Position numbers and translations under genes: made by a program. A stretch of 64,000 nt of DNA from Longimicrobiales bacterium (lineage in GTDB: Bacteria; Gemmatimonadota; Gemmatimonadetes; Longimicrobiales; Gaopeijiaceae). The notes under the pieces were generated by a model. That model was not told the DNA's origin, did not search any database, and saw only the letters and a list, made by a program, of their open reading frames with translations. The stretch covers positions 1,184,001 through 1,248,000 of the forward strand of contig CBDFIQ010000001.1 of NCBI GenBank assembly GCA_965248195.1, given 5' to 3'. Position 1 is the first letter of the stretch; each line of letters opens with the position of its first letter. Shown here one piece after another: positions 5,216 through 39,706 of the stretch.

Positions 5216-6211
5216 CTACGGCGTTACGTTCACCCTGACGTAGCCGTTGGTAAAGCAGCAGTTGTCATTATCGCTGCTGTCCGGCGCGCTGAAGTTGTCC
5301 ACCCGGGCTCGCATGATGTACTCACCCGGCACGGAGAACGTAACAATCACGCTGGCAGTGCCCTGCCCCTCCGGAAGCGGGATAATCTGGGGTCCGGAGG
5401 CGGCACGTTGTCGTCGAGCAGCGGCGGCAACAGCACCACCATCACTCGCGGCAGCAGCAGAGTCCGGCTCCTCCTCCTCCACGACCTCAGGGTTGGACTC
5501 GTGCCGCGTGTACTCCACCCTTCCGGGACCCTGGAGTTGGGACCACACCACACGAAGGGGAACGTCCACAGAACGGGCATCGTCCGGATCCCTCTCCGAG
5601 GGGTCCGTCGCGTTGACCGAGAGGGTGAGGGGAGATCCTACCGACACGGTCTGCGTACGTTCTGCCATGATGCCCGGAGGTCCCCGGCCCACGCCGGACT
5701 GCGAGTCGAAGGAAACGCTGGGAGGTAGACCTCCGTGAGGCCGGGGCATCCAGTCCAATTCATAGGCGATGGCCCCGGTCCGGCCGGGCACCTTCGTGAC
5801 GTCGCCGTTCGCTTTGGTAAGCGTCCACCAGACGTCCTGGTCCATCATCTCCGCCGGCAGAGTCACGGTGAAAATCCCGCGGTGGTGTCCGGGGAAAAAG
5901 ATCGTGGACTGCACCCCGTCGAACTGAGCCGGATCGAGGAAATTATCCTCTCCGACGGGGATGTACAGCGTGTCCAGGTTGGCATTGCTGTATCCGAAGG
6001 AGATGGTGTACGTCCCGTCCTCGTTCTCGTACCAGCCCTCCATGAAGGGGGCGAGGATGTGATTTCCGGGAGAGTTGGGTTGCAGGGGCCAACGGCCATC
6101 CGGCCCCGGACCCGTCACCTGGGCCTCGAGTACCACTGGACCGGCCACAGCACCCCAGAGAAGCAGCGCCAAGGCCACTCCACCCACGGTCATACGAAAC
6201 TGGTGCATCAT
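5216..6211 (-). CDS. Secreted monooxygenase-associated protein P1 (C-terminal Ig/PKD-like region, vicinal CC)
   Basis: Signal peptide; PFMEGWYENEDGT..ISFGY; VWWTL; CCFTNGYVRVNV; AGGA RBS. Confidence 0.7.
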   Translation of the reverse strand: MMHQFRMTVGGVALALLLWGAVAGPVVLEAQVTGPGPDGRWPLQPNSPGNHILAPFMEGWYENEDGTYTISFGYSNANLDTLYIPVGEDNFLDPAQFDGVQSTIFFPGHHRGIFTVTLPAEMMDQDVWWTLTKANGDVTKVPGRTGAIAYELDWMPRPHGGLPPSVSFDSQSGVGRGPPGIMAERTQTVSVGSPLTLSVNATDPSERDPDDARSVDVPLRVVWSQLQGPGRVEYTRHESNPEVVEEEEPDSAAAASDGGAVAAAARRQRAASGPQIIPLPEGQGTASVIVTFSVPGEYIMRARVDNFSAPDSSDNDNCCFTNGYVRVNVTP

Positions 6212-6264
6212 GGACTCCTTCCTGAACGCTCGAGCGTCGCATCGAAGGCGGGACTGAAAGAAAC

Positions 6265-6310
6265 GGGGACCGAAGGAGCCGCGGCTGCTGCGAAGCGTCC
6301 TTCGATCCCC
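6265..6310 (-). terminator. Conserved stem-loop downstream of M2 (copy 2 of 3)
   Basis: Same GGGGATCGAAGGA/TCCTTCGGTCCCC stem, then GTTTCTTTC. Confidence 0.6.
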
Positions 6311-6343
6311 ATTAGTAAAGAGCAGGTAAAGCGACCTGCGCGA

Positions 6344-7750
6344 TCAATCCCTAGCGGCGATCCTCTCCGCTTCCTCCTTCATCTTCCTCTCCTCGAGGAG
6401 CTTTTCGTAGCCTTCCTCATCGAGGTGGGTCACGCCGAGCCAAAAATGCGACATCTCGTCAGCAGTCCGGCTTCCGTAGTCGACCCACTGATCCGGATCC
6501 GGGTTGTTGGGGTTGCCGTCCGTGTTGTCGAACCACTGCTTCATTATGAGGACCGCGCCGGCCGGGACCAGGGGCGCCGCGTCATCCTCGTAAATGTGAC
6601 TCTGGTGCCAGGTGGCGCTCCAGTTGGAGACCATGCTGATGATCTCCGTCCGTCCGGTCTCCGGATAGAAGATCTCCAGGGACGCGGACCGCAAGCGCAG
6701 ATGCCCGTGCGGCTGGAAGCTGTCGATGCGGACCGGATGGTCGAACGAGCGGAAGCCCTGGGTCATGGCCGACCCATTCGGCGGGATCATGAGGTCACGC
6801 TTACCCTCCATGAAGCCATAGCTGACCAGGTCCTGCTTGTACTCGTACTCGTAGTCGGCCGGATGGAGCCAGATGCCCAAATCGACCACGTTGCCCTCGA
6901 TCACGTCGTTCACAGCAGTCTTTCCGAGCCCGCCGGGATACATGTGGATGTCCCAGCGAATATAAGTATCCGCAGGGAACACTCGGCACACACCGTCGGG
7001 AATGATCTCACCCAGCTTGCCCATGGCGTACTCGGTTGCCCGGTCCCCAGTCCCCTGGAAGCTTCCGTCGTCCTGCAGGCGCTGGAAGGTCGAGTTGGCG
7101 TGGTGGACCACCGTCACGGCTTCTCCACGGGGCTTCACCTGAAGGGCCTTGATGCAGCGCTCGCCATCAGGCAGGCCTTGCATCTCGACCACTGGACGGT
7201 GCCACAAGTCGAGGCCGGCCGCCGGCACGTCGATCGGTGTCGAGGGGGCGAGAATGTCCGGTGGGCCGAAGTCGGCCGCCAGCGTCCATTCGTCTGTGGG
7301 GAGCAACTCGGCCGGCGGTGGCATGTCGTCCGGATTGCCCAGAGGCGCTCCTTGGTCTACCCAGGCAACGACGGTGTTGATGTCCTCTTGGGAGAGACGC
7401 CAATCGTGCTTGAGCTCCTGGATGCCGATGTCGTTGTCGTAATAATACGGCGGCATCTGGCGGTTCTCTACTTTGATCTTGATGAGGGGCGCATACAACT
7501 TGACGTTCTCGTAGGTCACGAGCTCCATGGGTCCGATTCCACCGGCTCGGTGGCAGACCTGGCAGTTGTTCTGGATGATCAACGCCACGTCCGCGGCGTA
7601 GGTGACGTCTTCGTCATTTTGCGACGACGCGAAATTGACCTGGGCCTGGGCCGCACTCTGGAAAGCCAAGGTCGCCGCGAGCGCGAAGGTGGCGGCGCCG
7701 GTCCAGGGCGTCCACAAGCGCTGATGTTGGCTCCGATTCTGCAGGTCCAT
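6344..7750 (-). CDS. Cytochrome c + PHM-like copper monooxygenase, paralog M2
   Basis: CQVCH, MPP, VVHH, IHMY, PHGH, DEMSH; start moved to MDLQN after GAGAGGA. Confidence 0.8.
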   Translation of the reverse strand: MDLQNRSQHQRLWTPWTGAATFALAATLAFQSAAQAQVNFASSQNDEDVTYAADVALIIQNNCQVCHRAGGIGPMELVTYENVKLYAPLIKIKVENRQMPPYYYDNDIGIQELKHDWRLSQEDINTVVAWVDQGAPLGNPDDMPPPAELLPTDEWTLAADFGPPDILAPSTPIDVPAAGLDLWHRPVVEMQGLPDGERCIKALQVKPRGEAVTVVHHANSTFQRLQDDGSFQGTGDRATEYAMGKLGEIIPDGVCRVFPADTYIRWDIHMYPGGLGKTAVNDVIEGNVVDLGIWLHPADYEYEYKQDLVSYGFMEGKRDLMIPPNGSAMTQGFRSFDHPVRIDSFQPHGHLRLRSASLEIFYPETGRTEIISMVSNWSATWHQSHIYEDDAAPLVPAGAVLIMKQWFDNTDGNPNNPDPDQWVDYGSRTADEMSHFWLGVTHLDEEGYEKLLEERKMKEEAERIAARD

Positions 7751-7838
7751 GATGGTCCTCTCCCTCATGCGAGTGAACTAGCCATACTACGCCTTAAGCA
7801 ACCCAGGGTCCTTTCCCTCGGGATTTTACGTTCCTCGG

Positions 7839-7867
7839 AATCTACGCGCCGATCCGGAGGGATACAA
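7839..7867 (-). promoter_or_regulatory. Putative sigma70 promoter of M2
   Basis: TTGTAT-17-TAGATT. Confidence 0.55.
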
Positions 7868-7889
7868 TACGGTCGGCACCTTCCCAATT

Positions 7890-8867
7890 CTACCTGACAG
7901 TCACCCTGACGTATCCGTTGGTCCAGCAGCACTGGTTCCCCGAGGAGCTGTCCGGCGCACTCCAGTTGTCCACCCGCGCTAGCATGAGATACTCACCCGG
8001 CTCGGAGAACGTCACTATCACGCGGGCCACGCCATACCCCTCCGAAAGGGGGATAATCTGGGGTCCGGGGGGGGGACCAGCATCATCACCATCGCCAGCG
8101 GCGACAGCAGCAGAGTCCGGCTCCTCCTCATCCACCTCAGGGAGCGGGTTGGACTCATGCCGAGTGAACTCGACCGGTCCGGGACCCTGGAGCTGGGACC
8201 ACACCACGCGAAGGGGGATGGCCTCCCGAAACCGGAAATCCTCGGAATCCCTCTCCGAAGGATCCGTCGCGTTGACCGAAAGGGTGAGGGGAGAGCCTAC
8301 CGCGACAGTCTGCGTACGTTCTGCCATGATGCCCGGAGGTCCCCGGCCCACGCCGGAATCCGAGTCGAAGGAAACGCTGGGAGGGAGACTACCGTGTGGC
8401 CGGGCCATCCAGTCCAATTGATAGGCAACGGCCCCGATCCGGCCGGGCACTCTCGTGACGTCACCGTTCTCCTTGGTAAGGGTCCACCAGACGTCCTGGT
8501 CCCTCATGTTCGCCGACAGATCAGCGGTGAAGAGCCCCCGGTGGTGTCCAGGAAAAAAGACGGTGGGCTGCATTCCGTTGAACTGCGCCGGCTCGAGAAA
8601 ATTGTCCTCTCCGACAGGAATATACAGCGTGTCGTCGTTGAGATTTAGGTACCCGAAGGAGATGCTGAACGTCCCGTCTTCATTCGCATACCAGCCCTCC
8701 ATAAAGGGCGCAAGGGTGCGATTCCCGGGAGCGTTGGGCTGCAGGGGCCAACGGCCATCCGGCCCCGGCCCTGTCACCTGGGACTCGAGTGCCGTTGGAC
8801 CGGCCAAAGCACCCCATAGAAGCAGAGCGAAGGCCACACCACCCACGGTCATACGGATCTGCATCAT
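7890..8867 (-). CDS. Secreted monooxygenase-associated protein P2
   Basis: Paralog of P1; AAGGAG RBS before MMQIR; CCWTNGYV. Confidence 0.7.
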   Translation of the reverse strand: MMQIRMTVGGVAFALLLWGALAGPTALESQVTGPGPDGRWPLQPNAPGNRTLAPFMEGWYANEDGTFSISFGYLNLNDDTLYIPVGEDNFLEPAQFNGMQPTVFFPGHHRGLFTADLSANMRDQDVWWTLTKENGDVTRVPGRIGAVAYQLDWMARPHGSLPPSVSFDSDSGVGRGPPGIMAERTQTVAVGSPLTLSVNATDPSERDSEDFRFREAIPLRVVWSQLQGPGPVEFTRHESNPLPEVDEEEPDSAAVAAGDGDDAGPPPGPQIIPLSEGYGVARVIVTFSEPGEYLMLARVDNWSAPDSSSGNQCCWTNGYVRVTVR

Positions 8868-8929
8868 GGACTCCTTCTCGATTATTCGAGCGTCCGGGAG
8901 AAGGCGGGTCGGTGTACCCAATCTTGATT

Positions 8930-9931
8930 CTACCGCGTTACGTTCACCCTGACGTAGCCGTTGGTCCAGCAGCACTGGTCCCCATCGCCGCTGTCCGCCG
9001 CACCGAAGTTGTCCACCCTGGCTCGCATGATGTACTCACCGGGCTCGGTGAACGTAACGATCACGCGGGCTGTGCCTTGCCCCTCTGAAAGCGGGATAAC
9101 CTCGGGCCCGCACGGGTCTTCACGCCGGCGTCGGGCAGCGGCGGCGGCGCCACCGGCGGCGGCGACAGCAGCAGAGTCCGGCTCCTCCTCCTCATCCTCC
9201 TCCACCTCAGGGTTGGATTCGTGCCGCGTATACTCGACACGACCGGGACCCTGAAGCTGGGACCATACCACACGAAGGCCAATTTCCGCGAAGCGGAAAT
9301 CGTCCAGATCCCTCTCCGAAGGGTCCCTCGCGTTGATCGAGAGGGTGAGCGGATCCCCCACCGAGACGGTCTCCGTACGCTCTGCCATGAGGCCTGGAGG
9401 TCCTCGGCCCTCACCGCGCTGCGAATCGAAGGAGACCAGGGCAGGGAGACTGCCGTGAGGCCGGGCCATCCAGTCCAATTGGTAGGCAATCGCATTGGTT
9501 CGGCCGGGCACTCGTGTGACGTCGCCGTTCGCTTTGCGAAGGGTCCACCAGACATCCTCGTCCTTCATGTTCGCCGGCAGATCGGCGGTGAAGAGCCCTC
9601 TTTGGTGTCCAGGAAAAAAGACGGTGGGCTGCATTCCGTTGAACTGAGCCGGCTCGAGGAAATTGTTCTCCCCAACAGGAATATACAGCGTGTCGTCGTT
9701 GAGATTGAGGTACCCGAAGGAGATGCTGAACGTCCCGTCTTCGTTCTCGTACCAGCCCTCCATGAAGGGGGCAAGGGTGCGATTTCCGGGAGAGTTGGGC
9801 TGCAGGGGCCAACGGCCATCCGGCCCCGGCCCCGTCACTTGAGCCTCGAGTGCCGTTGGACCAGCTGGACCAGCCAAAGGACCCCAGAGCAGCAGCGCGA
9901 CGGCCACGCCACACACGCTCATGCGAAGCAT
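8930..9931 (-). CDS. Secreted monooxygenase-associated protein P3
   Basis: Paralog of P1/P2; AAGGAG RBS before MLRMS; CCWTNGYV. Confidence 0.7.
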   Translation of the reverse strand: MLRMSVCGVAVALLLWGPLAGPAGPTALEAQVTGPGPDGRWPLQPNSPGNRTLAPFMEGWYENEDGTFSISFGYLNLNDDTLYIPVGENNFLEPAQFNGMQPTVFFPGHQRGLFTADLPANMKDEDVWWTLRKANGDVTRVPGRTNAIAYQLDWMARPHGSLPALVSFDSQRGEGRGPPGLMAERTETVSVGDPLTLSINARDPSERDLDDFRFAEIGLRVVWSQLQGPGRVEYTRHESNPEVEEDEEEEPDSAAVAAAGGAAAAARRRREDPCGPEVIPLSEGQGTARVIVTFTEPGEYIMRARVDNFGAADSGDGDQCCWTNGYVRVNVTR

Positions 9932-9990
9932 CGTAAACTCCTTCTCGAAATGTTGGAGGGTCGAATCTAAGGCGGGCTTGTGAAATAAGC

Positions 9991-10042
9991 GATGGGGACC
10001 GAAGGAGCTTGCGGTTGCTCCAAGCGTCCTTCGATCCCCATC
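9991..10042 (-). terminator. Conserved stem-loop downstream of M3 (copy 3 of 3)
   Basis: Same outer stem; inner stem GCTTG/CAAGC with a different loop. Confidence 0.6.
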
Positions 10043-10070
10043 ACATCCAGCATGTAAAGCGACCTGATAA

Positions 10071-11441
10071 TCAGTTCCTAGCAGCGATCCTCTGCTCTTC
10101 GTCCGTCTTCCGCTCTTCCATGAGTCTGTCGTAGCCCTCCTCATCGAGATGGGTCACGGCGATCCAGAAATGGGACATCTCGTCCGCGGTTCGGCTGCCC
10201 CCATCCACCCACTGATCCGGATCGGGGTTGTTGGGGTTGCCGGCCGTGTTGTCGTACCACTGCTTCATTACGAGTACCGCACCGGCCGGGACCAGGGGCG
10301 CCGCGTCATCTTCGAAAATGTGGCTCTGGTGCCAGGTGGCGCTCCAGTTGGAGACCATGCCGATGATCTCCGTCCGTCCGGTCTCCGGATAGAAGATCTC
10401 CAAAGACGCAGACCGCAGCCGCAGGTGCCCGTGGGGCTGGAAGCTGTCGATGCGGACCGGATGGTCGAAGCTCTTGAAGCCCTGAGTCATGGTCGTTCCG
10501 TGCGGCGGCATGACGAGCTCACCTTCACGGATCCCGTAGAGCGACAGATCCTGCTTGTACTCGTACTCGTAGTCGGCCGGATGGAGCCAGATGCCCAAAT
10601 CGACCACGTTACCCTCGATCACGTCGTTGGCGGCAGTCGCTCCGAGCCCGCCCGGATACATGTGGATGTCCCAGCGAATATAAGAATCTGGGGGGATCAC
10701 CCGGCAAACGCCGTCGGGAATGATCTCACCCAGCTTGCCCATGGCGTACTCGGTTGCCCGGTCCCCCGACGCCTCGAAGCTGCCGTCTTCCTGAATGAGC
10801 TGGAAGGTCGAGTTGGCGTGGTGGACCACCGTCTTGGCAACCCCACGAGGCTTCACCTGAAGGGCTTTGATGCAGCGTTCCTCGCTACCGATCATGCCTT
10901 GCACCTTGACGATCGGACGGTGCCACATGTCCAACCCGGCGGCGGGCACGTCGATGGGCGTCGAGGGGGCAAGCAGGTCCGGCGGACCGAACTCGGCCGC
11001 CAACGACCAGTCGTCGGTGTCGAGCAAGTTCAACTCCGGAATCTCGTCCCTATTGCCGAGCGGCGCACCCTGGTCGACCCAGGCAACGACGGTGTTGATG
11101 TCTTCCTGGGAGAGACGCCAATCGTGCTGAAGCTCCTGGATGCCGACATCGTTGTCGTAGTAATACGGCGGCATCTGGCGGTTCTCTACTTTGATCTTGA
11201 TGAGGGGCGCATACATCCGGACGTCCTCGTAGGTCACGAGCTCCATGGGCCCGATTCCACCCGCGCGGTGGCAGACCGTGCAGTTCTCCTGGATGATGGA
11301 CGCCACGTCCGCCGAGTAGGTCAGGTCCACGTCGTTCGTCGACGCGAAGGTGGCCTGGGCCTGGGCTGTGCTCTGGAAAGCGAAGGCCGCGACGAGTGCG
11401 AGAGTGGCGGCTCCGATCCAGAGCCGTTTCTGCAGTTCCAT
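10071..11441 (-). CDS. Cytochrome c + PHM-like copper monooxygenase, paralog M3
   Basis: CTVCH, MPP, VVHH, IHMY, PHGH, DEMSH; start at MELQK. Confidence 0.8.
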   Translation of the reverse strand: MELQKRLWIGAATLALVAAFAFQSTAQAQATFASTNDVDLTYSADVASIIQENCTVCHRAGGIGPMELVTYEDVRMYAPLIKIKVENRQMPPYYYDNDVGIQELQHDWRLSQEDINTVVAWVDQGAPLGNRDEIPELNLLDTDDWSLAAEFGPPDLLAPSTPIDVPAAGLDMWHRPIVKVQGMIGSEERCIKALQVKPRGVAKTVVHHANSTFQLIQEDGSFEASGDRATEYAMGKLGEIIPDGVCRVIPPDSYIRWDIHMYPGGLGATAANDVIEGNVVDLGIWLHPADYEYEYKQDLSLYGIREGELVMPPHGTTMTQGFKSFDHPVRIDSFQPHGHLRLRSASLEIFYPETGRTEIIGMVSNWSATWHQSHIFEDDAAPLVPAGAVLVMKQWYDNTAGNPNNPDPDQWVDGGSRTADEMSHFWIAVTHLDEEGYDRLMEERKTDEEQRIAARN

Positions 11442-11527
11442 GATGGTCCTCTCCCTCAATACGGGTGAACTACAACCAAAAAAATCACCGAAAGCCCAGA
11501 TCCTTCCTGGGGACCGACATTCCTCCG

Positions 11528-12113: not shown

Positions 12114-14438
12114 CTAGGGGGCGCGGGCCTCCTGCTTACCCTCGGTGTCACCCTCGGGTTGGGCTTTTTGGGCCGCAGTTTGGGTCTCCGGTGCGGCCTG
12201 GGTCTCCTCCGCAGCTTGGTCCTCCGGTGCGGCGCTCTGGGCCTGCCCCAGCAACCGAGCCTTTACCTCGCGGCGGCGTGCGTGAAGCACCCTCTCAGTG
12301 TAACCATTCAGTTCTTTGCTGCCATCGAACACCAACTCCAGAGCGGCCTGGAACTCGGAGCTCGACGAAAGGTCGGGGGCCATGGGCCGGTAGTGGGGGT
12401 CTCCCTGGTTTTGCCCGTCGACTACCGCTGCCATGGCCTCGAACGTGCTCGTCACCTGATCCGCGGTGATGAGACCGTGATGGAGCCAATTCGCGATGTG
12501 TTGGCTCGAAATGCGCAACGTCGCGCGGTCCTCCATCAGCGCAACGTCATTCATGTCGGGGACCTTGGAGCAGCCGATCCCCTGGCCGACCCAGCGGACC
12601 ACGTAACCCAGGATGCCCTGCGCGTTGTTGTCCAACTCGTTCTGGATTTCCTCGTCGGTCAAACGCCGATCCCCGAGCAGGGGTAGGGTCAGGATGGCGT
12701 CCAAGTCGGCGCGCTCTCGGTCGGCCAGTTCGGACTGAACGGCCCGGACGTTTACCCGATGGTAGTGCGTGGCGTGCAACGTGGCTGCGGTGGGCGAGGG
12801 CACCCAGGCAGTGTTGGCACCGGCTCGGGGGTGGCCGATCTTCGCCTCGACCATCGCGCGCATGATGTCCGGCGCGGCCCACATCCCCTTTCCGATCTGC
12901 GCCACGCCGGGGAGACCGCACTCGATCCCCACGTCCACGTTCCAGTCCTCGTACGCGAGCATCCACGGGCAGCTCTTGATTTCCGGTTTTGGGATCATGG
13001 CCCCGGCTGCCATGCTCGTGTGGATCTCATCTCCGGTGCGGTCGAGAAACCCGGTATTGATGAAAATCAGGCGGTTCGCTGCCGCGCGGATGCACTGCTT
13101 CAGGTTGACGGTCGTCCGCCGCTCTTCGTCCATGATACCGATCTTCAGCGTTCGCTTCGGCATCCCCAGAGCCTGCTCGACCCGACCGAACAACTCCACC
13201 GTGGCGGCAACCTCCTCGGGCCCGTGCATCTTGGGCTTCACTATATAGACGTTGCCCGTACGGCTGTTGCGTATGGGGCCGTCGCCTTGGAGGTCGTGGA
13301 GGGCGCAGGAGGAGGTGATCAGGGCGTCGAGGAAACCCTCCGGGATGGGCTCGCCAGCCGCCGTGGTGACGGCGTCGGTGTACATGTGAATCCCGACGTT
13401 GCGCACCAGGAGCAGGCTACGGCCTGGCAGTTTGAGCGCCTTGCCGCTCGGGTCTTGATACGTGAGATCCTCATTGAGCGAGCGCGTCAGGGCCCGGCCG
13501 TCCTTCTCGAAGGTGGTCGTGAGCGTTCCCCTCATGATCCCCAGCCAGTTGCGATACAGGACGGTTTTGTCCTCCGCGTCGACTGCCGAGACGGAATCCT
13601 CGCAGTCCTGGATGGTCGTAATGGCGCTCTCCATCACCACGTCGTAGACGCCCGCCGGATGCGCCTTGCCGACGGCGTGATCACGATCGATCCGGATATC
13701 GATGTGGAGGCCATGGTTGCAAAGGAGCACGCTGCTCACCCGCCCGTCCTCGAGCTGGAAGCCGGCGAAGTGGGCCGGGTCGGCCGGCGCCGTTCTCCGG
13801 TCATCGGCGAGCACGCACACGAGGCGGCTCGGACCGTCGTAATTTTCGACGACGAAGTCGGTGACTTCCGAGTAGAGGCCTTCCCTCAGGGGAACGACGT
13901 CGTCGAGAAAGCGCTCGGTCCATTCCACGACCCGGGCTCCCCGCACCGGATTGTAGGCGGCTCCTCGTTCCGCCCCGTCTTCCTCGCTGATGACATCGGT
14001 GCCGTAGAGGGCGTCATAGAGGCTACCCCAGCGCGCATTCGCCGCGTTCAGGGCGTACCGGGCGTTGTCCACCGGCACCACGAGTTGCGGCCCCGCGATC
14101 GACGAGATCTCCGGATCCACATCGTCCGTCGTGATCGCGAACGGGCCCTCCTCCTCGAGCAGATAGCCCGTCTCCGCGAGGAATCGCCTGTAAGCGGCCG
14201 GGTCGAGGGTCTCGCTCGCTCGTTCCTGATGCCATGCATCGAGCCGTTTTTCGTGACGGGCGCGCATGTCGAGGAGGCGGCGATTCTCGGGTCCGAGTTC
14301 CTTGACCATGGCCCCTAGCGACCTCCAGACCGCGTCGGGATCGAGGCCTGTGCCGGGTGCGATCTCGGATTGTACGAGGTCGTAGAGGGGCTTCGCGATC
14401 CTGAGGTTCGCTACGGTGATCGGCTCGAGTGCGCTCAT
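12114..14438 (-). CDS. glcB: Malate synthase G
   Basis: [88 protein letters not shown]. Confidence 0.97.
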
Positions 14439-14560
14439 GGTTTGGGGGGCTCCTAGACCAGGGTTCACACCGGCGTGCCACGCCTTCGAGGGAGCGTGAC
14501 TCCGGAGGCCGCCGTCTGGCAGCTCGGCGGACTGCTACTCAGCGAGCCATATCGCGTTAG

Positions 14561-15919
14561 CTATTGGCCACCGCCGCCTTGGGTCGCGAGCTGCCGTTGG
14601 CGCTCCTGCCGCCGCGTCATCATCGTGTCGTACTCCTCCTGCTCCAGCCGGGTTGTGCCGACCCACATGTGAGACATCTCGTCCACACCGCGCCTGCCGA
14701 ACACCACCCACTGATTGGGATCCGGATTGAGTGGATTTTCGGCGCTGTTGTCGAAGACGGATGTGAACAGAAGCATCGTACCGGCGGGAAGGAGGGGCTT
14801 GGCGTCCTCCTCGAACTGGTAGGAAAGCTGCCAAATGTGCCTATAGTCCGAGACTTTGCCGAGCATTTCCCTGCGGCCATCCGGGTAGATAGCCTCCATG
14901 GACATCTCTTTGCCGCGCATGTGCATGTGCGGCCGGAAGCTGCTGATCAGGGTCGGGGTGGTGAGTACGTGGATGCCTTGGAGAACCTGCTCACCGTACG
15001 GCGGGATAAGAATGTCGCCGCCCCGCGGCATACCGTTCATCCGGTCGACCCTGTAGAGGACCTCTCCTCGGGTCTCGATCTCGGGTCGCTCACCCTCCGG
15101 GTAAAACCAAAGCCCGACATCGACCACGTCGTTCTCTACGACTTCACCGACCGGGAAGTAGTGGATATTAAACGACGCCTCAGCTTCCCCGGCGGGAAGC
15201 AACATCCCGATACCCTCAGGGAACGTCTCATAGCGCTTTCCGACTCCGTAATGCGCGATTCCGACGGTCTGGTCCGCGAACCGGAGGCTCGCGTGGCCGT
15301 GATGGACGACCTTGAGGCCATTCGGATACGCTGGTTTGAACTCATACCCTTTGATCCAGCGGTCCTCGTTGGCCCCCTCGAACTTCTGAGTGGGCCCCCA
15401 CCACTGATCCTGGCCGTTGGCTATCACGTCGTACGCTGCAGATGAGACCACCACATCCGGCGGCCGGCCATACATTTCCTCGAGTACCCAAGCACCGCCC
15501 TCCGCGAGCCGGGGAGGCGGGGGCATATCCGCATCGTCACCCTTGAGCGCACCGCCATCCGCCCACCGGACGATCGTCTCGATCTCGTCGTCGGTCAGCG
15601 CCGCGTCGTTCTCGTAGGCCTGAATACCCACCGTGCGATCGACGTGCCAGGGCGGCATTTGGCGGGTTTGCACTTTGATTTTCATCAGCGGTGCGTACAG
15701 CCGGGCGGTCTCATACGTGAGGAGCGACATCGGCGCGAACGAGCCGGGCCGGTGACACTGGACGCAATTCTCGTAAAGGATCGGCGCCACGTCCCTGGTG
15801 AACGTGACGTCTTGTGCATCGAGTGCCCCCACGGGGAGCGCCGACGCGATCACCAAGGTCGAGGCTAGAACTCCGAGGCTCCGCCGGAAGTGGAATCGTG
15901 GTGAACGGTCTCTCCTCAT
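14561..15919 (-). CDS. Cytochrome c + PHM-like copper monooxygenase, paralog M4
   Basis: CVQCH, MPPW, VVHH, IHYF, PHMH, DEMSH; signal peptide. Confidence 0.8.
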   Translation of the reverse strand: MRRDRSPRFHFRRSLGVLASTLVIASALPVGALDAQDVTFTRDVAPILYENCVQCHRPGSFAPMSLLTYETARLYAPLMKIKVQTRQMPPWHVDRTVGIQAYENDAALTDDEIETIVRWADGGALKGDDADMPPPPRLAEGGAWVLEEMYGRPPDVVVSSAAYDVIANGQDQWWGPTQKFEGANEDRWIKGYEFKPAYPNGLKVVHHGHASLRFADQTVGIAHYGVGKRYETFPEGIGMLLPAGEAEASFNIHYFPVGEVVENDVVDVGLWFYPEGERPEIETRGEVLYRVDRMNGMPRGGDILIPPYGEQVLQGIHVLTTPTLISSFRPHMHMRGKEMSMEAIYPDGRREMLGKVSDYRHIWQLSYQFEEDAKPLLPAGTMLLFTSVFDNSAENPLNPDPNQWVVFGRRGVDEMSHMWVGTTRLEQEEYDTMMTRRQERQRQLATQGGGGQ

Positions 15920-15972
15920 AATTGCTTCTCCTTGAGCCAACCAACGAGGATATCGTGCACAGAATGCACCAT

Positions 15973-16036
15973 ATCCCGAATCCTTACGACGAGATCGGTC
16001 TATAATCCCGAATCCTTACGATGGGATCAGTCTATT
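15973..16036. repeat. 32-bp tandem duplication (x2) overlapping the stop codon of P4
   Basis: atcccgaatccttacgacgagatcggtctata / atcccgaatccttacgatgggatcagtctatt. Confidence 0.85.
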
Positions 16037-32124: not shown

Positions 32125-32736
32125 GTGAGAGATCTACCAGTGGTCTCAAGAGGAAGCGGCCCACGCTTCCTGCGGCATACCGGCATAACGGCGCCGCTTC
32201 TAAGCGACGGATCGGAAAACCCGGATTTCGTTCTTGATCAAGAGCCTTATCGCAATGCTTCGATCCTGCTCGCTGGCGAGAACTTCGGCACCGGCAGTGC
32301 GCCGGAGTCTGAGGTTTTCCGGCTTATGGCATATGGCATTCGATCGGTTATTGCGCCCAGTTTCGCACCGGCGTTCTACAACAATTGCTTGACCTACGGC
32401 ATGTTGCCGGTGACTCTCGGCGAGGAAGTGATCGAAAAGCTGGCCGAGGGAGTCGTGTCGAATCCCGGGGTGGAGATGACGGTCGACCTGGAAGGGCAGG
32501 TGATCGAGCTCTCCGGAATGGAACCCGTTTCCTTCAGCATGGATGCTCGAGCGCGCAACAAGCTGTTGCAGGGGTTGAGCGACCTGGATGAAATGCGTCA
32601 GCACAATGAAAATGTCGTGGCGTTTCGGAACCATGATCGGAACCGGAGGCCTTGGATCTACAACCTGCGAGATGAGGTTCCACTGCCGTCGAACCTCACC
32701 TCAGAGGGTAGCAAAAGCGGTGGTCGAGAAGCATGA
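32125..32736 (+). CDS. LeuD-like small subunit D1 (internal deletion, degenerate motif)
   Basis: HTG..APL, PDFVL, GENFGTGS, IAPSF..FYNNC...G.LP, VDLE; lacks the N(V)DTD..IP segment. Confidence 0.7.
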   Translation: MRDLPVVSRGSGPRFLRHTGITAPLLSDGSENPDFVLDQEPYRNASILLAGENFGTGSAPESEVFRLMAYGIRSVIAPSFAPAFYNNCLTYGMLPVTLGEEVIEKLAEGVVSNPGVEMTVDLEGQVIELSGMEPVSFSMDARARNKLLQGLSDLDEMRQHNENVVAFRNHDRNRRPWIYNLRDEVPLPSNLTSEGSKSGGREA

Positions 32737-32773
32737 GTGGCGGTCTACGTAGACTTTTAGGGAGGAACACGTC

Positions 32774-34270
32774 ATGAAAAGAAGGAACTTCATCAAGACG
32801 TCCGTAGGGGCAGGGTTCGCGGTGTCGACTAATCCCTTTGCGGCTCGCTCCGATCAGTTAGCGCCGCTCAGCCAAGCCCAGGTGCCAGCCACGATGTTCG
32901 ACAAGATCTGGGATGCACACGTGGTGACGAACCTCGGCGGGCGCACCGATCTGCTCCAGGTCGACCGGTGTATCGGTGGTAGTCCCAATCAGGTGTTGGA
33001 TCTGCTGGAGCAGGGTGTCGAGGTCGCGAATCCCGAGATCTTCTTTAACGTGCCCGACCATGGCGTTTCCACGTCACCGGACAGGTATACGGACCGCTCG
33101 CTCGGTACGGGCTGGCAGTCGTACGAGGAGCATGCCGACCGGATGAGGGAGATGGGCTTCAACACCTTCGGCCAGTTCGATCCCAGACACGGCATCCAGC
33201 ACGTGGTCGGCCCCGAGACCGGGTTGAGCCAGCCAGGCATGGTGCTCTGTGCCGGCGACAGCCACACCTGCACGCACGGGGCGATGGGCTTGATCTCCTG
33301 GGGTGGAGAAAGCTCAAACAACATTCTCCGCACGGGGACGGTCATCCGGCTCCATCCGATGACCATGCGCGTCAACGTCGTGGGCAGGCTGGGCCCCGGA
33401 CTCAGATCGAAGGATATCATCCTTCGTATTATCTCCCAGCTCGGTACGGACTCGGGCTCTGGCTACGCGGTGGAGTACGCCGGTCCCGTTGTGCGGGCCC
33501 TGCCCCAGGAGGCCCGGTTCACCATCTGCAATCTCGCCGTGGAGATGGCTTCTCTGACGGGAATGGTGGGTCCCGACGACACGACGTTCGAGTGGATGGC
33601 GGGTCGGGAGTTCGCCCCCGCAGACCGCTACTGGGATCAGGCCCTGAGGTTCTGGCGAACCGTGCCCACCGACGAGGGCGCGGTGTTCGACCGGGAAGAG
33701 ACGATCGACATGACTGGGGTGGAGCCGCAGGTCACGTGGGGCATCAATCCCGAGCACGCCATAGGGATCGGCGACCGCATTCCCGATCCCGACGAGGCGC
33801 CCGCGCAGAAGCGGGAGACGTACCGGCAGGCCATTGAGTACAGCCGCCTCACCCCGGGTGAGCCTATTCTCGGAACGCCGCTCGACGAAGTGTTCATCGG
33901 ATCCTGCGCCGAGAGTCGAATCAGTGATCTTCGCGCCGCAGCTGAAGTGGTCCGCGGCCGCCGGGTCGCATCCAACATCGTCTCCGCGTGGGTCGTTCCA
34001 GGGTCACAGCCGGTCAAGCGTCAGGCAGAGGCTGAGGGCCTTGACCGCATCTTCAGGGAGGCGGGATTCGAGTGGCAGGAGCCCAGCTGCTCGAAGTGCT
34101 ACGGCTCGAACGGTGACTATGTCACGCGGGGTAACCGCTGCATATCGAACTCCAATCGCAACTACATCGGCCGCCAGGGCGGAGGCACCAACACCATTCT
34201 GGCCAGCACCTCCACGGTAGCCGCTTCGGCCATCGCCGGTCACATCGCCGACGTGCGAACCTACCTGTAG
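32774..34270 (+). CDS. LeuC/aconitase-family [4Fe-4S] hydro-lyase large subunit with twin-arginine N-terminus
   Basis: MKRRNFIK; FDKIWDAHVV, GIQHV.GPE, GDSHTCTHGA, TICN, FIGSC, CSKC, SNRNY.GRQG. Confidence 0.85.
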   Translation: MKRRNFIKTSVGAGFAVSTNPFAARSDQLAPLSQAQVPATMFDKIWDAHVVTNLGGRTDLLQVDRCIGGSPNQVLDLLEQGVEVANPEIFFNVPDHGVSTSPDRYTDRSLGTGWQSYEEHADRMREMGFNTFGQFDPRHGIQHVVGPETGLSQPGMVLCAGDSHTCTHGAMGLISWGGESSNNILRTGTVIRLHPMTMRVNVVGRLGPGLRSKDIILRIISQLGTDSGSGYAVEYAGPVVRALPQEARFTICNLAVEMASLTGMVGPDDTTFEWMAGREFAPADRYWDQALRFWRTVPTDEGAVFDREETIDMTGVEPQVTWGINPEHAIGIGDRIPDPDEAPAQKRETYRQAIEYSRLTPGEPILGTPLDEVFIGSCAESRISDLRAAAEVVRGRRVASNIVSAWVVPGSQPVKRQAEAEGLDRIFREAGFEWQEPSCSKCYGSNGDYVTRGNRCISNSNRNYIGRQGGGTNTILASTSTVAASAIAGHIADVRTYL

Positions 34271-34297
34271 AGAAGAGGCCTGTAGAGGAGACCGAGA

Positions 34298-34984
34298 ATG
34301 ACCATGCAACAGACTAACCAGCAGAGAGGTCCGCGAAGAGGAGGCCAACGCTTTGTAAGGCACGTCGGCTTGGCGGCGCCGTTCATGTTTAACAACGTGA
34401 GCACGGACGTCTCCAGTCCGGGGGGCGCAGCGACTGGCCTCGCCGGCGTGGGTATAGATACCGCAGCCGAGCTCGCTTTCGCCAACATCCGGTATTTCGC
34501 TGACGGATCTGAAAGGCCGGACTTCGTTTTTAATCAAGAGCAGTATCGCAGTGCCTCGATCATGATCGTTGGTCTGAACTATGGCACGGGCAGCTCGCGC
34601 TCGGGCGCGATCACGCGGCCCCTGGAAGCGTGGGGAGTACGAGTATACATCGGGGAAAGCTTCGGACCGATCTTCTTGACCAACGCGATGCAGTACGGCG
34701 TGTTGACTGTGGAACTTCCCCGGCCGACGGTCGATAGGATCGCGGACTGGGTCCGGGCGAACCCGGGAATACCGATGGCGGTGGATCTGGAAAGGCAGGT
34801 GATCGAGATGCCCGGCTTGGAGCCCGTTCCCTTCCAGACCGAAGCCAGAACGCGCAACAAGCTGTTGACCGCTGTGGACGACCTGGAAGAAATCAATCCA
34901 CACCTGCCGGCGGCCAGGACGAAGAGAGCGGAGGACGAGAGAGCGCGTCCCTGGGTCTATGATTATCGTGGCACTGGCCGCTGA
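34298..34984 (+). CDS. LeuD-like small subunit D2
   Basis: NVSTD, NYGTGSSR, ESFG.IF..NA, VDLERQ. Confidence 0.8.
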   Translation: MTMQQTNQQRGPRRGGQRFVRHVGLAAPFMFNNVSTDVSSPGGAATGLAGVGIDTAAELAFANIRYFADGSERPDFVFNQEQYRSASIMIVGLNYGTGSSRSGAITRPLEAWGVRVYIGESFGPIFLTNAMQYGVLTVELPRPTVDRIADWVRANPGIPMAVDLERQVIEMPGLEPVPFQTEARTRNKLLTAVDDLEEINPHLPAARTKRAEDERARPWVYDYRGTGR

Positions 34985-35059
34985 GGCGCTTGTTGTGGGG
35001 TGAGCCCGCCGCTCGCTAAACTTGCCCGCTCGGGAAGCTGAATTGACGGCAAAGGAGCT

Positions 35060-35770
35060 GTGACCATCCTTCAAACTGCCCCGCAGTTCGTGCGGCATAC
35101 CGGCATCGCGGCGCCTTTCATGCAACGCGACGTCGAAGGCGAGTACATCGCCCCAGTGGGTCCTGAACTTCAGGACCTTCACGCTGTGCATTTGGACCCG
35201 GGCGCGGCAGTGCTCGAGCCGCACACCCACGACGGTTCATGGGCCGGGCAACACGCCTTCCATGGCTTCCGATACCGACCCGACGGATCGGAAGATCCGG
35301 ATTTCGTCCTCAATCAGGAGCCTTATCGTAATGCTTCGATCCTGCTCGCTGGTCGGGACTTCGGCCGTGGCAGCCTACAGGCGTTTGCGGTCATCCGGCT
35401 CATGCAGTGCGGCATGCGAGCGGTCATCGCGCCCAGCTTCGGAACGGTGTTCTATGATGACTGCTTTGACTACGGTCTGTTACCGGTGACTCTCGGCGAA
35501 GAGGTGGTCGGAAGGATCGCTGACGGCGTCAGGGCGAATCCCGAAGTGGTAATGTCGGTCGACCTCGCGAGGCAGGTGATCGAGCGCCCGGGTATGGAAC
35601 GCATTTCCTTCCAGATTGACTCCAGACGACGCGTGAATCTGCTACAGGGCTTGGACATCACCCTGGATGAACGGCTTCAGCACAGCGACAGCGCCGCGGC
35701 GATGAGGAGCCAGGATCGGAGCGCACGGCCCTGGATCTACGACACTCGTGGTGACCGAAATCCTCCCTGA
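35060..35770 (+). CDS. LeuD-like small subunit D3 (His-rich insertion)
   Basis: HTGIAAP, PDFVLNQEPY, DFGRGS, IAPSFG..FY; GTG start after AAGGAG. Confidence 0.75.
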   Translation: MTILQTAPQFVRHTGIAAPFMQRDVEGEYIAPVGPELQDLHAVHLDPGAAVLEPHTHDGSWAGQHAFHGFRYRPDGSEDPDFVLNQEPYRNASILLAGRDFGRGSLQAFAVIRLMQCGMRAVIAPSFGTVFYDDCFDYGLLPVTLGEEVVGRIADGVRANPEVVMSVDLARQVIERPGMERISFQIDSRRRVNLLQGLDITLDERLQHSDSAAAMRSQDRSARPWIYDTRGDRNPP

Positions 35771-35808
35771 GGCACTCCAACTGGAGTGGAGAGCCTCGGG
35801 CCGGCCAC

Positions 35809-37749
35809 TCATTCGATGATTGCCAGGCGCCGGAGGTCCCGCTCCGCGAGTAGTCGGAGCCACTCGTAGACGTCGATCTCGCTGTTCGCGGCGATGAGAA
35901 GATGAGGCCTGGCCTGATCCGGTCCGCCGAATCCGAGCCAGCGCTCCGTTGCCTCGGTGGCCTTTTCCTCGAGCCCTGGACGAGAGGCCAAGAAATCGTA
36001 TTCGAACGCTTCGAACCCGGGGAGTTTGACAATCGATCGATAGGCCACCTGCCGGGTCGCCGAATACGAATCCGTGAGGAGCTGCGCCAGATACGCGGCC
36101 ATCCAAGTACCGTCCGACGCGTCCCGAGCCGCGTCCCAGCCCAGGTGCCAGGCGAGGATCGTGCGCTGGGCCGCATCACCCTTCAGCGTCCAGAGGATTG
36201 AGGCGGCGATGGATCGCTCGTCCTCGTCCAGCTCCACGAGGGGCTGGCCGTACCACTCCTTCAGGTACCGACTCGACCACTCCAGAGTCTGGTCGAGGTG
36301 ACAGAGGTTGCACGCGTTGGGACGCCCGCTCTCCACCGAGACCTGAACGCTAGGATTGTCGATCCGGTGGCTCCGCATGGCTGAAAAGAGGCCGTACGTG
36401 GTGTGTGGCATGTGACAGTTCATGCACTCGCTGCCCGAAGACTCGGGAAGGTGTCGGGTGTGCTCCGAGATCTCGTCGGCGAAGTCCGTGTGGCAGTTCA
36501 GGCACGACCGGTTTCCGGCGACCTCGGGATCGAGCTGGGTGTCGGAGGCCTCGTACTCGTGCATTGAATGGCACGAAAGGCACGTCAGCTCGCTCGCTCC
36601 GAGGTGGGCGTCTTCCAGGAGGCCGTTGTACTCCCGACCCGCGACCCGAATCGTTCCGTCGGCCCAGAAATTGCCTTCTAGGGCGAGGGGATCGCTCCCC
36701 AGCATCTCCGCCAGTAGCGGATCTTCGGGGTCCTCCGTGTAGCGGAACACGGACCTGTACTCGTGCAGTTCGTCTCCGGCTCGGAACGGCACCCCATCCC
36801 TCCCGTACGCTCGCTGATCCGTCCACTCTCCGAAACTGTGGCATTGAGCGCACGTCTCCACGGAGCGGTGGGGCTCGAGCTTCTCGGGGTTGACGATGGT
36901 CGGATCGCGGGCGTCGGGATCCCGCAACCGGCGAAAGTACCGGAGATAGCGCCTTACCGGCGACTGATAGAAACGGACGTGCTCCTCGGCCGGACCGTGG
37001 CAGGCCTCGCACGCGATGCCCAGCTCCACCGTCCGGGTGTCGAAGCGGCCGAGGTCCGTCAGAACCCGGGGCTCGGTCCCTACCGAGTGGCACTGGGAGC
37101 AGGTACCGTTCCAGGGTGTAGCTCCCTGGACGGAGGAGCTCGGTGGCCTGAGAAACGAATCCTGGTTGGGGATCCATCTCGCCTCGGGAATCAGCCAGAC
37201 CCATGGGACCTGGACGAGTGCGCCACTGTCGGGCCCGAGAGGGCCCTCGGCCTCCTCCGGTCTGCGTATCCAGTAGTTCTGTATGTGGTGAGAGCCCGTG
37301 GTCATCACCACCCGGGCCTCGAAGCGCGGTGGGCTCTCGGGCCAATCCTCGTGCAAGCGCTGCATGAACTCGGCTGGTTGGTCGAACCAGAGGGGGTCCG
37401 GCATCTCGACCCAGAACTCGTCGCCCCGACGCTCGAGGCGCCACCGGTAGCCGCGGTCCTCGAGGACGACGTCGTCGAACATGCCCAGCACCGTGGAAGG
37501 CGTAACCGCCTGCGTCATGGTCCGATGGTAGGAACGGTGCCAGGCGTCGTACTGAGCCGGATGGCACGACTGGCACGTGACCGAGGTCGTGAACCCTTCC
37601 CCCATCGTCTGCTCCGGAAGGTCCTCCCTCAGGTCTTCGTCCACGTCCGGGCTCCAGAGAAGCCCCCCGCCGACCGCGAGCAGCGCGCAGACGACGAGGA
37701 CGATGCGGTAGGAGCGCTTCAAGGAGCCGGACGACGAAATGTGGGCCAT
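35809..37749 (-). CDS. Membrane-anchored octaheme c-type cytochrome
   Basis: Eight CxxCH motifs (CQSCH, CSQCH, CEACH, CAQCH, CLSCH, CLNCH, CMNCH, CNLCH); N-terminal TM segment. Confidence 0.9.
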   Translation of the reverse strand: MAHISSSGSLKRSYRIVLVVCALLAVGGGLLWSPDVDEDLREDLPEQTMGEGFTTSVTCQSCHPAQYDAWHRSYHRTMTQAVTPSTVLGMFDDVVLEDRGYRWRLERRGDEFWVEMPDPLWFDQPAEFMQRLHEDWPESPPRFEARVVMTTGSHHIQNYWIRRPEEAEGPLGPDSGALVQVPWVWLIPEARWIPNQDSFLRPPSSSVQGATPWNGTCSQCHSVGTEPRVLTDLGRFDTRTVELGIACEACHGPAEEHVRFYQSPVRRYLRYFRRLRDPDARDPTIVNPEKLEPHRSVETCAQCHSFGEWTDQRAYGRDGVPFRAGDELHEYRSVFRYTEDPEDPLLAEMLGSDPLALEGNFWADGTIRVAGREYNGLLEDAHLGASELTCLSCHSMHEYEASDTQLDPEVAGNRSCLNCHTDFADEISEHTRHLPESSGSECMNCHMPHTTYGLFSAMRSHRIDNPSVQVSVESGRPNACNLCHLDQTLEWSSRYLKEWYGQPLVELDEDERSIAASILWTLKGDAAQRTILAWHLGWDAARDASDGTWMAAYLAQLLTDSYSATRQVAYRSIVKLPGFEAFEYDFLASRPGLEEKATEATERWLGFGGPDQARPHLLIAANSEIDVYEWLRLLAERDLRRLAIIE

Positions 37750-37984
37750 GGCCAGATCGATAGACGGGCTTCATCTCCGTCGGATCGACGCCTTCGGCTT
37801 CCAGGACGCACCGACTCGCGAGATGATCTCGGGGTCACGTGGGCGTTGGAAGATCTGAAGCCCACGGGTGGCGACAAGGTAGGGGTTGCCGGTGCCGACC
37901 GACAGATACATGCTTGACCGGCGGCCCGACGCCCTCGGGAAATTTGGGGCGCTCGATGATGGAAGAGGTGGAGGAAAAGGGGAG

Positions 37985-38563
37985 ATGACGCGCCGAAACG
38001 ATGAGGCGGAGCAAGGCGCCGTGGCCGGAGTGGAAGGCGTGGGTGCCACCCTGCGGGAGTACCACACCTTTCTGCTCCGGTGGGGCACCTCGGACGAGAT
38101 CGGTGAGCGAATCGCCGAGCTTCGTAGGATCGCATCCTGGTGGGCGTCCAAGGAAGTGCCGGCCGAGGATGACGAGGCGGGCAGCCAGCTCGACACGGCG
38201 TTGGAACGGCTTACGACCGTTCGACAGACCGCGCAAGCGGTCGAGACGGCCCTCGACGAAGGGGGCTATGAGTTCGACAGGCACCTCCGGGTGCTGAGAG
38301 GGCGAAAGCGACCCGCCGTGGACGGGGACGTGCCGCGTGAGAGGGCACAGACTCTGCTTTCCCAGACCATCGTCGACGTCTTCGAGCAACTGAAGGAGCA
38401 GGGACGGCCGGATGAGAACACCCGGGAGCTCCGAATCGAGATCCGAGCCCGCCTGGCTCACTCCCTTCACCCCGAGCTCCTGTCCGACGGCGTGATCGAG
38501 ACCGCGGTGGATGAGGATCTGAATCCCGACCAGCGGATTGGTCAGCAGCCTGGGATGGTCTAG
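37985..38563 (+). CDS. Hypothetical helical cytoplasmic protein
   Basis: Fills the gap between two minus-strand genes; purine-rich RBS; no recognised motif. Confidence 0.5.
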   Translation: MTRRNDEAEQGAVAGVEGVGATLREYHTFLLRWGTSDEIGERIAELRRIASWWASKEVPAEDDEAGSQLDTALERLTTVRQTAQAVETALDEGGYEFDRHLRVLRGRKRPAVDGDVPRERAQTLLSQTIVDVFEQLKEQGRPDENTRELRIEIRARLAHSLHPELLSDGVIETAVDEDLNPDQRIGQQPGMV

Positions 38564-38737
38564 CGACCACAAGCCGATAGAATCGGATCAGGTGGCCCTG
38601 GGTCTAGGTGAACGCGCCTGGCGCCAATCGCTGAGGCCTTAGGCGGGAGCCGGCCCTTTTCGCCGACCGGGACTACAGGATGGTCGGGCCGTCACGAGGC
38701 GGGCGGGTGACCGCCGTGCTGCTTTGCGTGGATGCGC

Positions 38738-39706
38738 CTAGGGTGTGACGGTGACGTTCACGTAGGCGTTCGTCCAGCAACACTGGTTGGCAAAGCTCCC
38801 GTTGAGCACCTGCACGAGCAGCACATAGTCGCCAGGCTGGCTGAACGTCACCCGCGTCGTATGCTCGATGGGAACCATACCCACTTCGATCCGACTGCTT
38901 TCGGGGGCGAAACTCACGTCACCCCGTGGTCCACTAAACTTTATCCAGCTCAAGCTTTGTCGGGAAAGACCACGTTCCTCATCCTGGCTGCGTTGTAGGC
39001 CGCCTATCGTCATGCTCGCCAGGGCACTCGAAATCGTAATGGGGACCGGAGCTCCGACCCGAGCAGTGACGGGTCCCAACGTGATCCCACCTTTTCCTCT
39101 CCCTTCCGGTCCGGATGGCTCGATGAACCGGACCACCGGTGCCGCACGATCTCCCCCGAAACCGCGATTCCCTTCGAATTCCCCCATCGCCACTCCTACG
39201 GAGTTTTCGAGATTGTCGATCATGTACGATCGGACCGTGATGTGGCCTGGCACGCGATAGGTCTGACCATCGATTCGTAGGTTCCACCAAACGCGCTCAC
39301 TCCCTATGTCCGCTGGGACGTTTACGACGAAGACGCAGGTTTTGCCCTCAAGCTGACGTGTCGGGACGAGATCGCGCGGTCCCTGGGCTGTGAAGTGGGT
39401 GGGCTGAGCCCCGTTAAAGCGGGCGGGCTCGATGAAGTTGTCCGGCCCGACCGGGATGTCCAGCACCTCTTGCCGGTTCAGGCTGAAGTAACCGAAGCAG
39501 AGGTCGTAGGTGCCGTCCTCATTGGGATACCATCCCTCGAATATCGGAAGGACGGGCTGACCGGAATCGCGCACGGTTCGTATCTTCAGGTCCATTTGCA
39601 TCAGGGGATGCTCTGGCACGAGCTGCGCATCCAACGCTGGCACGTTGGCCAGCACGAGCCCGACAATCAGAAGTCCCGTCGCGGCCGACAGGAATCGAGA
39701 TATCAT
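38738..39706 (-). CDS. Secreted monooxygenase-associated protein P5
   Basis: PIFEGWYPNEDGT..LCFGYF, QPTHF, VWWNL, QCCWTNAYVNVTV. Confidence 0.7.
   Translation of the reverse strand: MISRFLSAATGLLIVGLVLANVPALDAQLVPEHPLMQMDLKIRTVRDSGQPVLPIFEGWYPNEDGTYDLCFGYFSLNRQEVLDIPVGPDNFIEPARFNGAQPTHFTAQGPRDLVPTRQLEGKTCVFVVNVPADIGSERVWWNLRIDGQTYRVPGHITVRSYMIDNLENSVGVAMGEFEGNRGFGGDRAAPVVRFIEPSGPEGRGKGGITLGPVTARVGAPVPITISSALASMTIGGLQRSQDEERGLSRQSLSWIKFSGPRGDVSFAPESSRIEVGMVPIEHTTRVTFSQPGDYVLLVQVLNGSFANQCCWTNAYVNVTVTP

Follow-up and report, generated by a model that had tools for sequence, protein, structure and literature searches.

A putatively secreted protein family linked to heme-c two-copper monooxygenases in a Longimicrobiales bacterium, and its possible role as a second subunit

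Monooxygenase and partner genes of the window

In a 64,000-nucleotide stretch of the genome of a Longimicrobiales bacterium (assembly GCA_965248195.1, contig CBDFIQ010000001.1, positions 1,184,001 to 1,248,000; the whole stretch is called the window below), five genes for putative two-copper monooxygenases with a cytochrome c domain (M1 to M5) lie beside five genes for a family of apparently secreted partner proteins (P1 to P5). An earlier sequence-only reading of the window had described five partners beside five monooxygenases in either gene order, and this was borne out: the partners fall between positions 5216 and 39706, and the genes are arranged as M3-P3-P2-M2-P1-M1 (3696-11441), P4-M4 (14561-16865) and M5-P5 (38738-41317), all on the minus strand (Table 1). 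The same reading had counted three separate loci. Given that P2 as well as P3 shares 77% identity with P1 in a five-sequence alignment, and that M2 and M3 are similarly close to M1 (Table 1), the six-gene array is read as a tandem expansion. P4-M4 and M3 share a strand and are only 2.9 kb apart, the malate synthase G gene being the sole gene between them. Because of these closely similar paralogs and this short distance, the window holds two loci and about three lineages, not three loci and five independent cases.

The partners are 277-333 residues long, and their hydrophobic N terminus, together with a cleavage motif of the AxQ type, makes up a putative signal peptide. The shared motifs quoted earlier (P..EG(W/Y)Y.N.D.T...FGY, Q.T.F and V.W.L), as well as the C-terminal CC(W/F)TN.YV, are invariant columns in the P1-P5 alignment, and the additional cysteine pair described for P4 and P5 is indeed present in both (Table 1). 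Since several of these motifs belong to a module that also occurs in tandem in large, unrelated secreted proteins, their role is probably to determine the fold.

Each M has an N-terminal domain with a CxxCH motif and weak matches to cytochrome c, and a core with the motifs HH...H and HxH...M. Rat peptidylglycine alpha-hydroxylating monooxygenase (PHM) was matched by a profile of 22 M catalytic domains (A8) at an E-value of 9e-8 (about 1e-7), and the alignment brings HH, H, HxH and Met of the two into register. This match was obtained with the catalytic-domain profile only, since PDB searches with M4 alone or with a whole-length M profile returned no PHM; taken singly, none of the window M passes the Pfam Cu2_monoox_C cut-off, which is passed by one M relative (L244). 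The six copper ligands and the heme His are kept in all 248 M of the unambiguous pairs described below. Judged by these ligands and by homology, M belongs with PHM and dopamine beta-hydroxylase (DBH) in the family of copper type II ascorbate-dependent monooxygenases, as a new bacterial form.

Table 1. Genes of the M/P loci and their immediate neighbours in the window
Gene	Position	Strand	Features
M1	3696..5093	-	CxxCH cytochrome c domain, PHM-like core (HH...H; HxH...M), putative signal peptide; Gln at PHM Arg240 position
P1	5216..6211	-	partner, 331 residues; Cys-Cys at residues 318-319 (5255-5260)
M2	6344..7750	-	heme c and PHM-like core; 76% identity to M1
P2	7890..8867	-	partner, 325 residues; Cys-Cys at residues 313-314 (7926-7931)
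P3	8930..9931	-	partner, 333 residues; Cys-Cys at residues 320-321 (8969-8974)
M3	10071..11441	-	heme c and PHM-like core; 85% identity to M1
malate synthase G	12114..14468	-	between M4 and M3, same strand; start codon uncertain
M4	14561..15919	-	heme c and PHM-like core; Arg at PHM Arg240 position
P4	16032..16865	-	partner, 277 residues; Cys-Cys at 264-265 (16071-16076) and C63/C111 pair; predicted two all-beta domains, pLDDT 94
P5	38738..39706	-	partner, 322 residues; Cys-Cys at 309-310 (38777-38782) and C70/C124 pair
M5	39911..41317	-	heme c and PHM-like core; Arg at PHM Arg240 position
NHL beta-propeller	41503..42585	-	next gene on the upstream side of M5; PAL lyase domain matched (3fvz, E 1e-25), TRIM-type NHL domains match better

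Linkage of P to M across genomes

Profile searches of the whole genome returned 21 P and 28 M. The genome-wide co-localisation that the sequence-only reading had proposed as a check was found for all 21 P, which lie within 400 bp of an M; 5000 random placements gave 0.41 such P on average and never more than 4. The pairing is looser from the side of M, where 22 of the 28 matches have a P and 6 do not. Over pooled loci, which were found by P searches and partly hand-picked so that class proportions are not representative, 309 distinct full-length P were collected: 278 adjoin an M, 12 are second in an M-P-P run, 11 lie at contig ends and 8 have no M within at least 1.4 kb on either side. Without the contig ends, 298 informative P from three phyla remain, and 290 of them are next to or within 1.6 kb of an M. 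Homologs of P thus mostly occur with the monooxygenase. The partner had been described as always adjacent to M and as obligate; the first description holds for this genome and fails for the 8 P without a nearby M, and the second fits P far better than it fits M.

Draws from other lineages gave the same picture. The same 13 of 21 related genomes carry both genes and the other 8 carry neither, these genomes being kin and not independent cases. Of 101 evenly drawn Acidobacteriota, 8 have P, and it is these 8 that also have a high-scoring M, at an M cut-off of 1e-110 that was set after the score gap had been seen. P was found in 9 genomes of an even draw of 81 from the host phylum, and the 8 besides this one hold 15 P and 15 M, paired one to one when coordinates were compared by eye, with an M search that covered the P-positive genomes of the draw. 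For five gammaproteobacterial genomes, the count leaves aside a single partial P row and 34 M rows of lower score. Of the 54 P, 51 adjoin an M, and of the 68 high-scoring M, 51 adjoin a P and 61 lie within 6 kb of one, often in the order P-M-M-M.

Trees of P and M (FastTree, midpoint root, no clade test) were congruent over 248 unambiguous pairs, with a correlation (r) of 0.92 overall and of 0.71-0.87 within the cysteine classes defined below, as compared to shuffled maxima of up to 0.30, and gene order changed 12-14 times across them. At one locus (L168) P and M are fused in frame, the M part has no signal peptide of its own, and the two are 138 nt apart, as compared to at least 169 nt in 64 unfused pairs. 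Fusion as general evidence was rejected: L179, L190/L256 and L078/L206 keep the signal peptide of P, and P0272/P0273 look frameshifted, so that only L168 was retained and the other single-frame cases are probably read-through. In three further single records, possibly artefacts (P0083, P0271 and P0054), P is fused to cupin domains, P is fused to an alpha/beta hydrolase (PF20091), and P forms a chimera with the C terminus of M. Coupling between the chains was analyzed over 248 pairs (effective number 155) and over 105 class I pairs, and the top scores were not above those of neighbour-swapped controls (16 inter-chain pairs above z 6, as compared to 16-19 and 16-23), the alignment being too shallow for this to count either way; couplings within the chains were sensible (C37-C85, V161-L167).

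Cysteine states, fold and neighbourhood of P

When the 255 P with a full-length M on the same strand were scored for cysteine motifs, 110 pairs had Cys-Cys on P (class I), 119 had a CxxC tail on M (class II), 26 had neither (one of these is a frameshifted class II pair) and none had both. The Cys-Cys of the window partners had been called invariant, and within one branch it is: a class I query, which matched 3316 representatives at E 0.001, recovered it in 90 of 90 length-filtered matches among the best 150 representatives, and in 96 of 98 by another filter. Family-wide the claim fails, since Cys-Cys is missing from 145 of the 255 scored P and from 6 of the 21 P of this very genome, and exactly these six adjoin an M that ends in a Gly-Cys-x-x-Cys tail. 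A universal rule of one cysteine pair per unit was considered and dropped; it held in 21 of 21 pairs of the genome and in the first 160 loci, and failed in Acidobacteriota. Given that each motif changes once on both the P and the M tree, the mutual exclusivity of Cys-Cys and CxxC tail reflects two single origins and does not constitute independent evidence, and their complementarity is therefore a lead, not proof; the group with neither motif is paraphyletic to the CxxC-tail clade. All three states occur together in two 3.9 Mb Acidobacteriota genomes (G073 and G100, L286-L322), each with at least 25 P matches. The extra cysteine pair of the P4/P5 type is all-or-none in class I (both residues in 29 P, neither in 76) and shows coupling in the covariance analysis, as would suit a structural disulfide.

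Variation in M follows the same classes. At the position of PHM Arg240, Arg is found in M4, M5 and 40 of 105 class I M, which are just 40 of the 248 paired M; M1-M3 have Gln and 115 of 118 class II M have Glu, and this R/Q/E variation suggests that the M paralogs may act on different substrates. A His two residues after the CuM Met is present in 101 of 105 class I M as compared to 1 of 143 other M, and a different class-specific His is present in 118 of 118 class II M. As separate observations, 9 of 25 full-length M of this genome end in Gly, 8 of them in Gly-Gly (11.6% and 2.4% of background genes, respectively), examples being L009:4502-5737 and L015:4144-5514; only 5 of 254 M elsewhere do so, and the feature is probably lineage-specific. 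A protein resembling M (L007:8572-11970) has CxxCH but lacks the copper ligands; it lies downstream of a gene with a heavy-metal-binding (HMBD-like) domain and faces an intact M-P pair. One partner-less M (L018:4412-5892) extends across two reading frames, by frameshift or assembly error.

The structural model of P4 had a mean predicted local distance difference test (pLDDT) score of 94 and a predicted template modelling score (pTM) of 0.90, as compared to a pLDDT of 53 for an earlier P model from 5 sequences. It is nearly all beta, with Cys-Cys after a short helix and before the last strand, and P is accordingly predicted to consist of two packed beta-sandwich domains. Residues 130-251 of P4 align to many Ig-like domains with Z-scores of 8-11 (best 2yhg, Z 11.1, root-mean-square deviation 2.6, 110 residues aligned). 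No whole-length structural match was found for P4 (TM-score at most 0.33), and the N-terminal domain, which the searches barely covered, gave no clear fold match. In Pfam, P4 scored 19.3 for PKD (PF00801), under the cut-off of 23.5, and nothing else was returned for P4 or for P1, P2, P3 and P5; NCBIfam gave no match for P1, P4, P5 or one class II P, and a PDB sequence search with P gave nothing significant. The ESM Atlas clusters for P are hypothetical or PKD-named only, and a viral fold library returned generic Ig-like matches only. P is thus a member of no curated family tested here. Its family-wide conserved columns are mostly Gly, Pro, Asn and aromatics; among the columns conserved at 90% (248 P) there is no His, Met or Cys, and Cys-Cys reaches that level only within class I.

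In 7 of the best 150 matches the N-terminal domain of P recurs as 3-7 repeats in large secreted proteins, and the three of these that were scanned have a DUF11 or T9SS tail, with no Pfam model over the P-type domain. The tandem copies in the seven proteins (P0056, P0087, P0092, P0106, P0110, P0124 and P0135) are flanked by Cys. These repeats and the Ig/PKD-like C-terminal domain would suit a surface or scaffold protein, one that holds M in position or catches a polymeric substrate and has no part in shaping catalysis. P1-P5, on the other hand, have no lipoprotein Cys, membrane anchor or sorting tail, and each M lineage retains its own P lineage, and we consider a pure scaffold improbable.

We also weighed whether P might be a maturation factor that loads copper into its cognate M or folds it. 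Cox17 donates Cu(I) by way of two adjacent cysteines. The Cys-Cys of P could in the same manner form a Cu(I) dithiolate, with the dithiol moved to the CxxC tail of M in class II. Such a role would be consistent with the 0 of 255 pairs in which both motifs occur together, with a single P preceding up to four M, with CopC-like genes near class II pairs (25 of 80 loci, each of them proteobacterial; the one member scanned is CopC) and with Cu(I) donation by Cox17 (PMC5717278). The 26 pairs with neither motif and yet intact copper ligands argue against it, and so do the single origin of each motif, the lack of any His or Met conserved across P, and the lack of a CopC, CusF, PCuAC or Sco match for P in Pfam, NCBIfam and fold searches; the neighbouring CopC could itself supply the copper. 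We regard copper loading as the chief rival of the subunit reading described below, though an unlikely one. The CopC-like genes are part of a conserved proteobacterial block around class II pairs with SURF1 and DUF6644 genes (25 loci, L026-L098), and at L058 this block persists without M.

A thiol-disulfide relay, with Cys-Cys or, in class II, the CxxC tail as a source or buffer of electrons for the copper centres, appears less probable still. Cys-Cys is strictly conserved in class I, vicinal disulfides are reported in PQQ alcohol dehydrogenases (PMC13384848), and partner-less relatives of M offer a possible parallel: these are fused to an AhpC/TSA domain, fused to TPR or stand alone, and the AhpC/TSA thioredoxin-fold domain is N-terminal in 5 of 5 scanned (3 above the Pfam cut-off). 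However, a heme c is already present in M, CxxC is missing from the fused redoxin domains, the 26 pairs have no such Cys pair, and no recurrent thiol reductase family was found among the neighbours of 160 loci. Partner-less M of this AhpC/TSA-fused type, with CxxC lost, were seen in Pseudohongiellaceae (L240-L244), with several copies per genome.

The gene neighbourhoods differ between the classes, in two families that were chosen after being seen there. Of the 12 class I clusters of the genome, 6 have an NHL propeller nearby, as compared to 1.2 expected, and 6 have a PQQ dehydrogenase-like gene nearby, as compared to 1.4 expected; near class II clusters both counts are 0 of 6. The genome holds 46 NHL propeller genes and 47 PQQ dehydrogenase-like genes. 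Foreign class I loci have PQQ dehydrogenases in 11 of 29 cases and NHL in 5 of 29; for foreign class II loci the counts are 0 of 61 and 1 of 61, respectively. The enrichment of PAL-like NHL genes near class I clusters here, and the strict gene linkage itself, are what one might expect if P were the substrate of M, modified by PHM-type amidation or another oxidation, as the sequence-only reading had also entertained. PHM, however, requires a C-terminal Gly, which none of the 21 P here has and 7 of the 288 P from elsewhere have (7 of 309 in all), and P is predicted to be a compact folded protein of 250 residues and no precursor peptide; a substrate role is very improbable.

Malate synthase consumes glyoxylate, the product of PAL-type cleavage, and the malate synthase G gene at 12114-14468, inside the M/P cluster, is the only copy in the genome. 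A glyoxylate pathway of PHM, PAL and malate synthase found no support as a general feature, since malate synthase G lies near the cluster in five same-genus genomes with comparable M or P rows but at 0 of 90 foreign loci. Elsewhere in the window, three LeuD-like small-subunit paralogs stand in a row with one aconitase-family large subunit (32125-35770), and a multiheme cytochrome c gene (35809-37749; several CxxCH, 17 Cys) lies on the strand of P5, 1 kb downstream of it; a gene similar to this cytochrome gene was found near the M-P pair of locus L016. A promoter and terminator scan showed no excess over shuffled sequences.

Given the linkage, the matching trees, the intact enzymes in all three cysteine states and the lack of family-wide ligands, we give about an even chance to the reading that P is a dedicated non-catalytic second subunit of an exported heme-c/two-copper M, and that Cys-Cys is a branch-specific loop feature. 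A copper site or redox relay at Cys-Cys, as had been suggested, is not the core function of the family, because 26 of 255 pairs have neither motif and still have an M with its six copper ligands intact. In a second-subunit mechanism, M and P would be exported via Sec, and heme c would replace ascorbate as the point of electron entry, with electrons plausibly coming from periplasmic PQQ dehydrogenases in the Cys-Cys class. P would dock on the M of the neighbouring gene and either stabilise it or cap the cleft between its two copper domains, a role that would parallel the one suggested for the extra domains of DBH. Cys-Cys would probably be a vicinal disulfide on the contact or substrate face of P, and the CxxC tail of class II M may be an independent equivalent.

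Several points weigh against P being such a subunit. The earlier proposal of a second subunit stands as the best reading, with strong family-wide linkage behind it, but binding of P to M is inferred. Co-duplication of neighbouring genes would likewise give congruent trees, and the L168 fusion is a single metagenome contig. The stoichiometry of the genes is not always 1:1, given the P-M-M-M and M-P-P arrays and the 7 of 68 high-scoring gammaproteobacterial M that lack a P within 6 kb, and this fits a shared helper as well as a fixed subunit. M types that are more distant are entirely without P. Finally, since all 110 of the 110 class I pairs have Cys-Cys, it matters in that class and could still be a metal or redox site there.

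A more specific form of the second-subunit reading can be put forward, tentatively and with the chances rather against it. M and P might form a two-subunit, heme-fed bacterial enzyme of the PHM/DBH type in which a dithiol was independently placed at the same spot by the copper cleft (by Cys-Cys on P in class I and by the CxxC tail on M in class II), where, along with the class-specific His, it would load copper or gate the open/closed movement. Electron and copper delivery to the two distant sites, and closure of the cleft, are still argued for PHM and DBH (PMC12164859). Both enzymes have been studied almost solely as animal enzymes, and a bacterial form with a built-in cytochrome and a separable partner would offer tractable models and natural variants, the three cysteine states being a ready comparison for the role of partner and thiols. 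Some uncultured bacteria from marine and soil habitats hold M and P in 20 or more copies per genome, and such large paralog sets point to an unrecognised capacity for periplasmic oxidation in Gemmatimonadota, Acidobacteriota and Pseudohongiellaceae.

Comparison with known systems

A literature search that included abstracts, with most subscription papers and supplements outside its coverage, returned no description of the P-M cassette. Among Cys-based copper chaperones (Cox17, Sco and CopZ, and the periplasmic CopC, CusF and PCuAC), the likeness lies in a paired-Cys motif in a protein linked to a cuproenzyme; unlike them, P has no Pfam or NCBIfam match, and none of them is among the listed fold matches, where absence is not exclusion. 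With vicinal-disulfide proteins such as PQQ alcohol dehydrogenase and an arabinofuranosidase (1wd4), P shares an adjacent Cys-Cys on a loop of an exported protein, recognised in P from sequence adjacency, whereas their folds are unrelated to that of P. Vicinal disulfides are described as binding ligand rings, stabilising structure or acting as switches (PMC12102755). The PKD/Ig-like beta-sandwich resembles the C-terminal half of P4 in the predicted model, in addition to the weak PKD match, but that match is sub-threshold, no structural match extends over the whole length, and the N-terminal domain of P has no clear counterpart.

For M the closest known system is the PHM domain of PAM (PDB 1PHM, 1OPM and 1SDW), to which the M profile matches with all motifs of the ligand set in register, the set being H107/H108/H172 and H242/H244/M314 (PMC12164859). 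M differs from it in its N-terminal CxxCH cytochrome domain, PHM using ascorbate and having no counterpart of P, and in the minority of paired M with Arg at the Arg240 position. The DOMON and dimerization domains of DBH have been proposed to work as switches for the open/closed movement (PMC12164859). They are part of the same chain as the core, unlike P, which has no DOMON match in Pfam or fold searches; like P in the reading preferred here, they are non-catalytic and accompany the same two-copper core, and they may thus serve as a model for the way in which P works.

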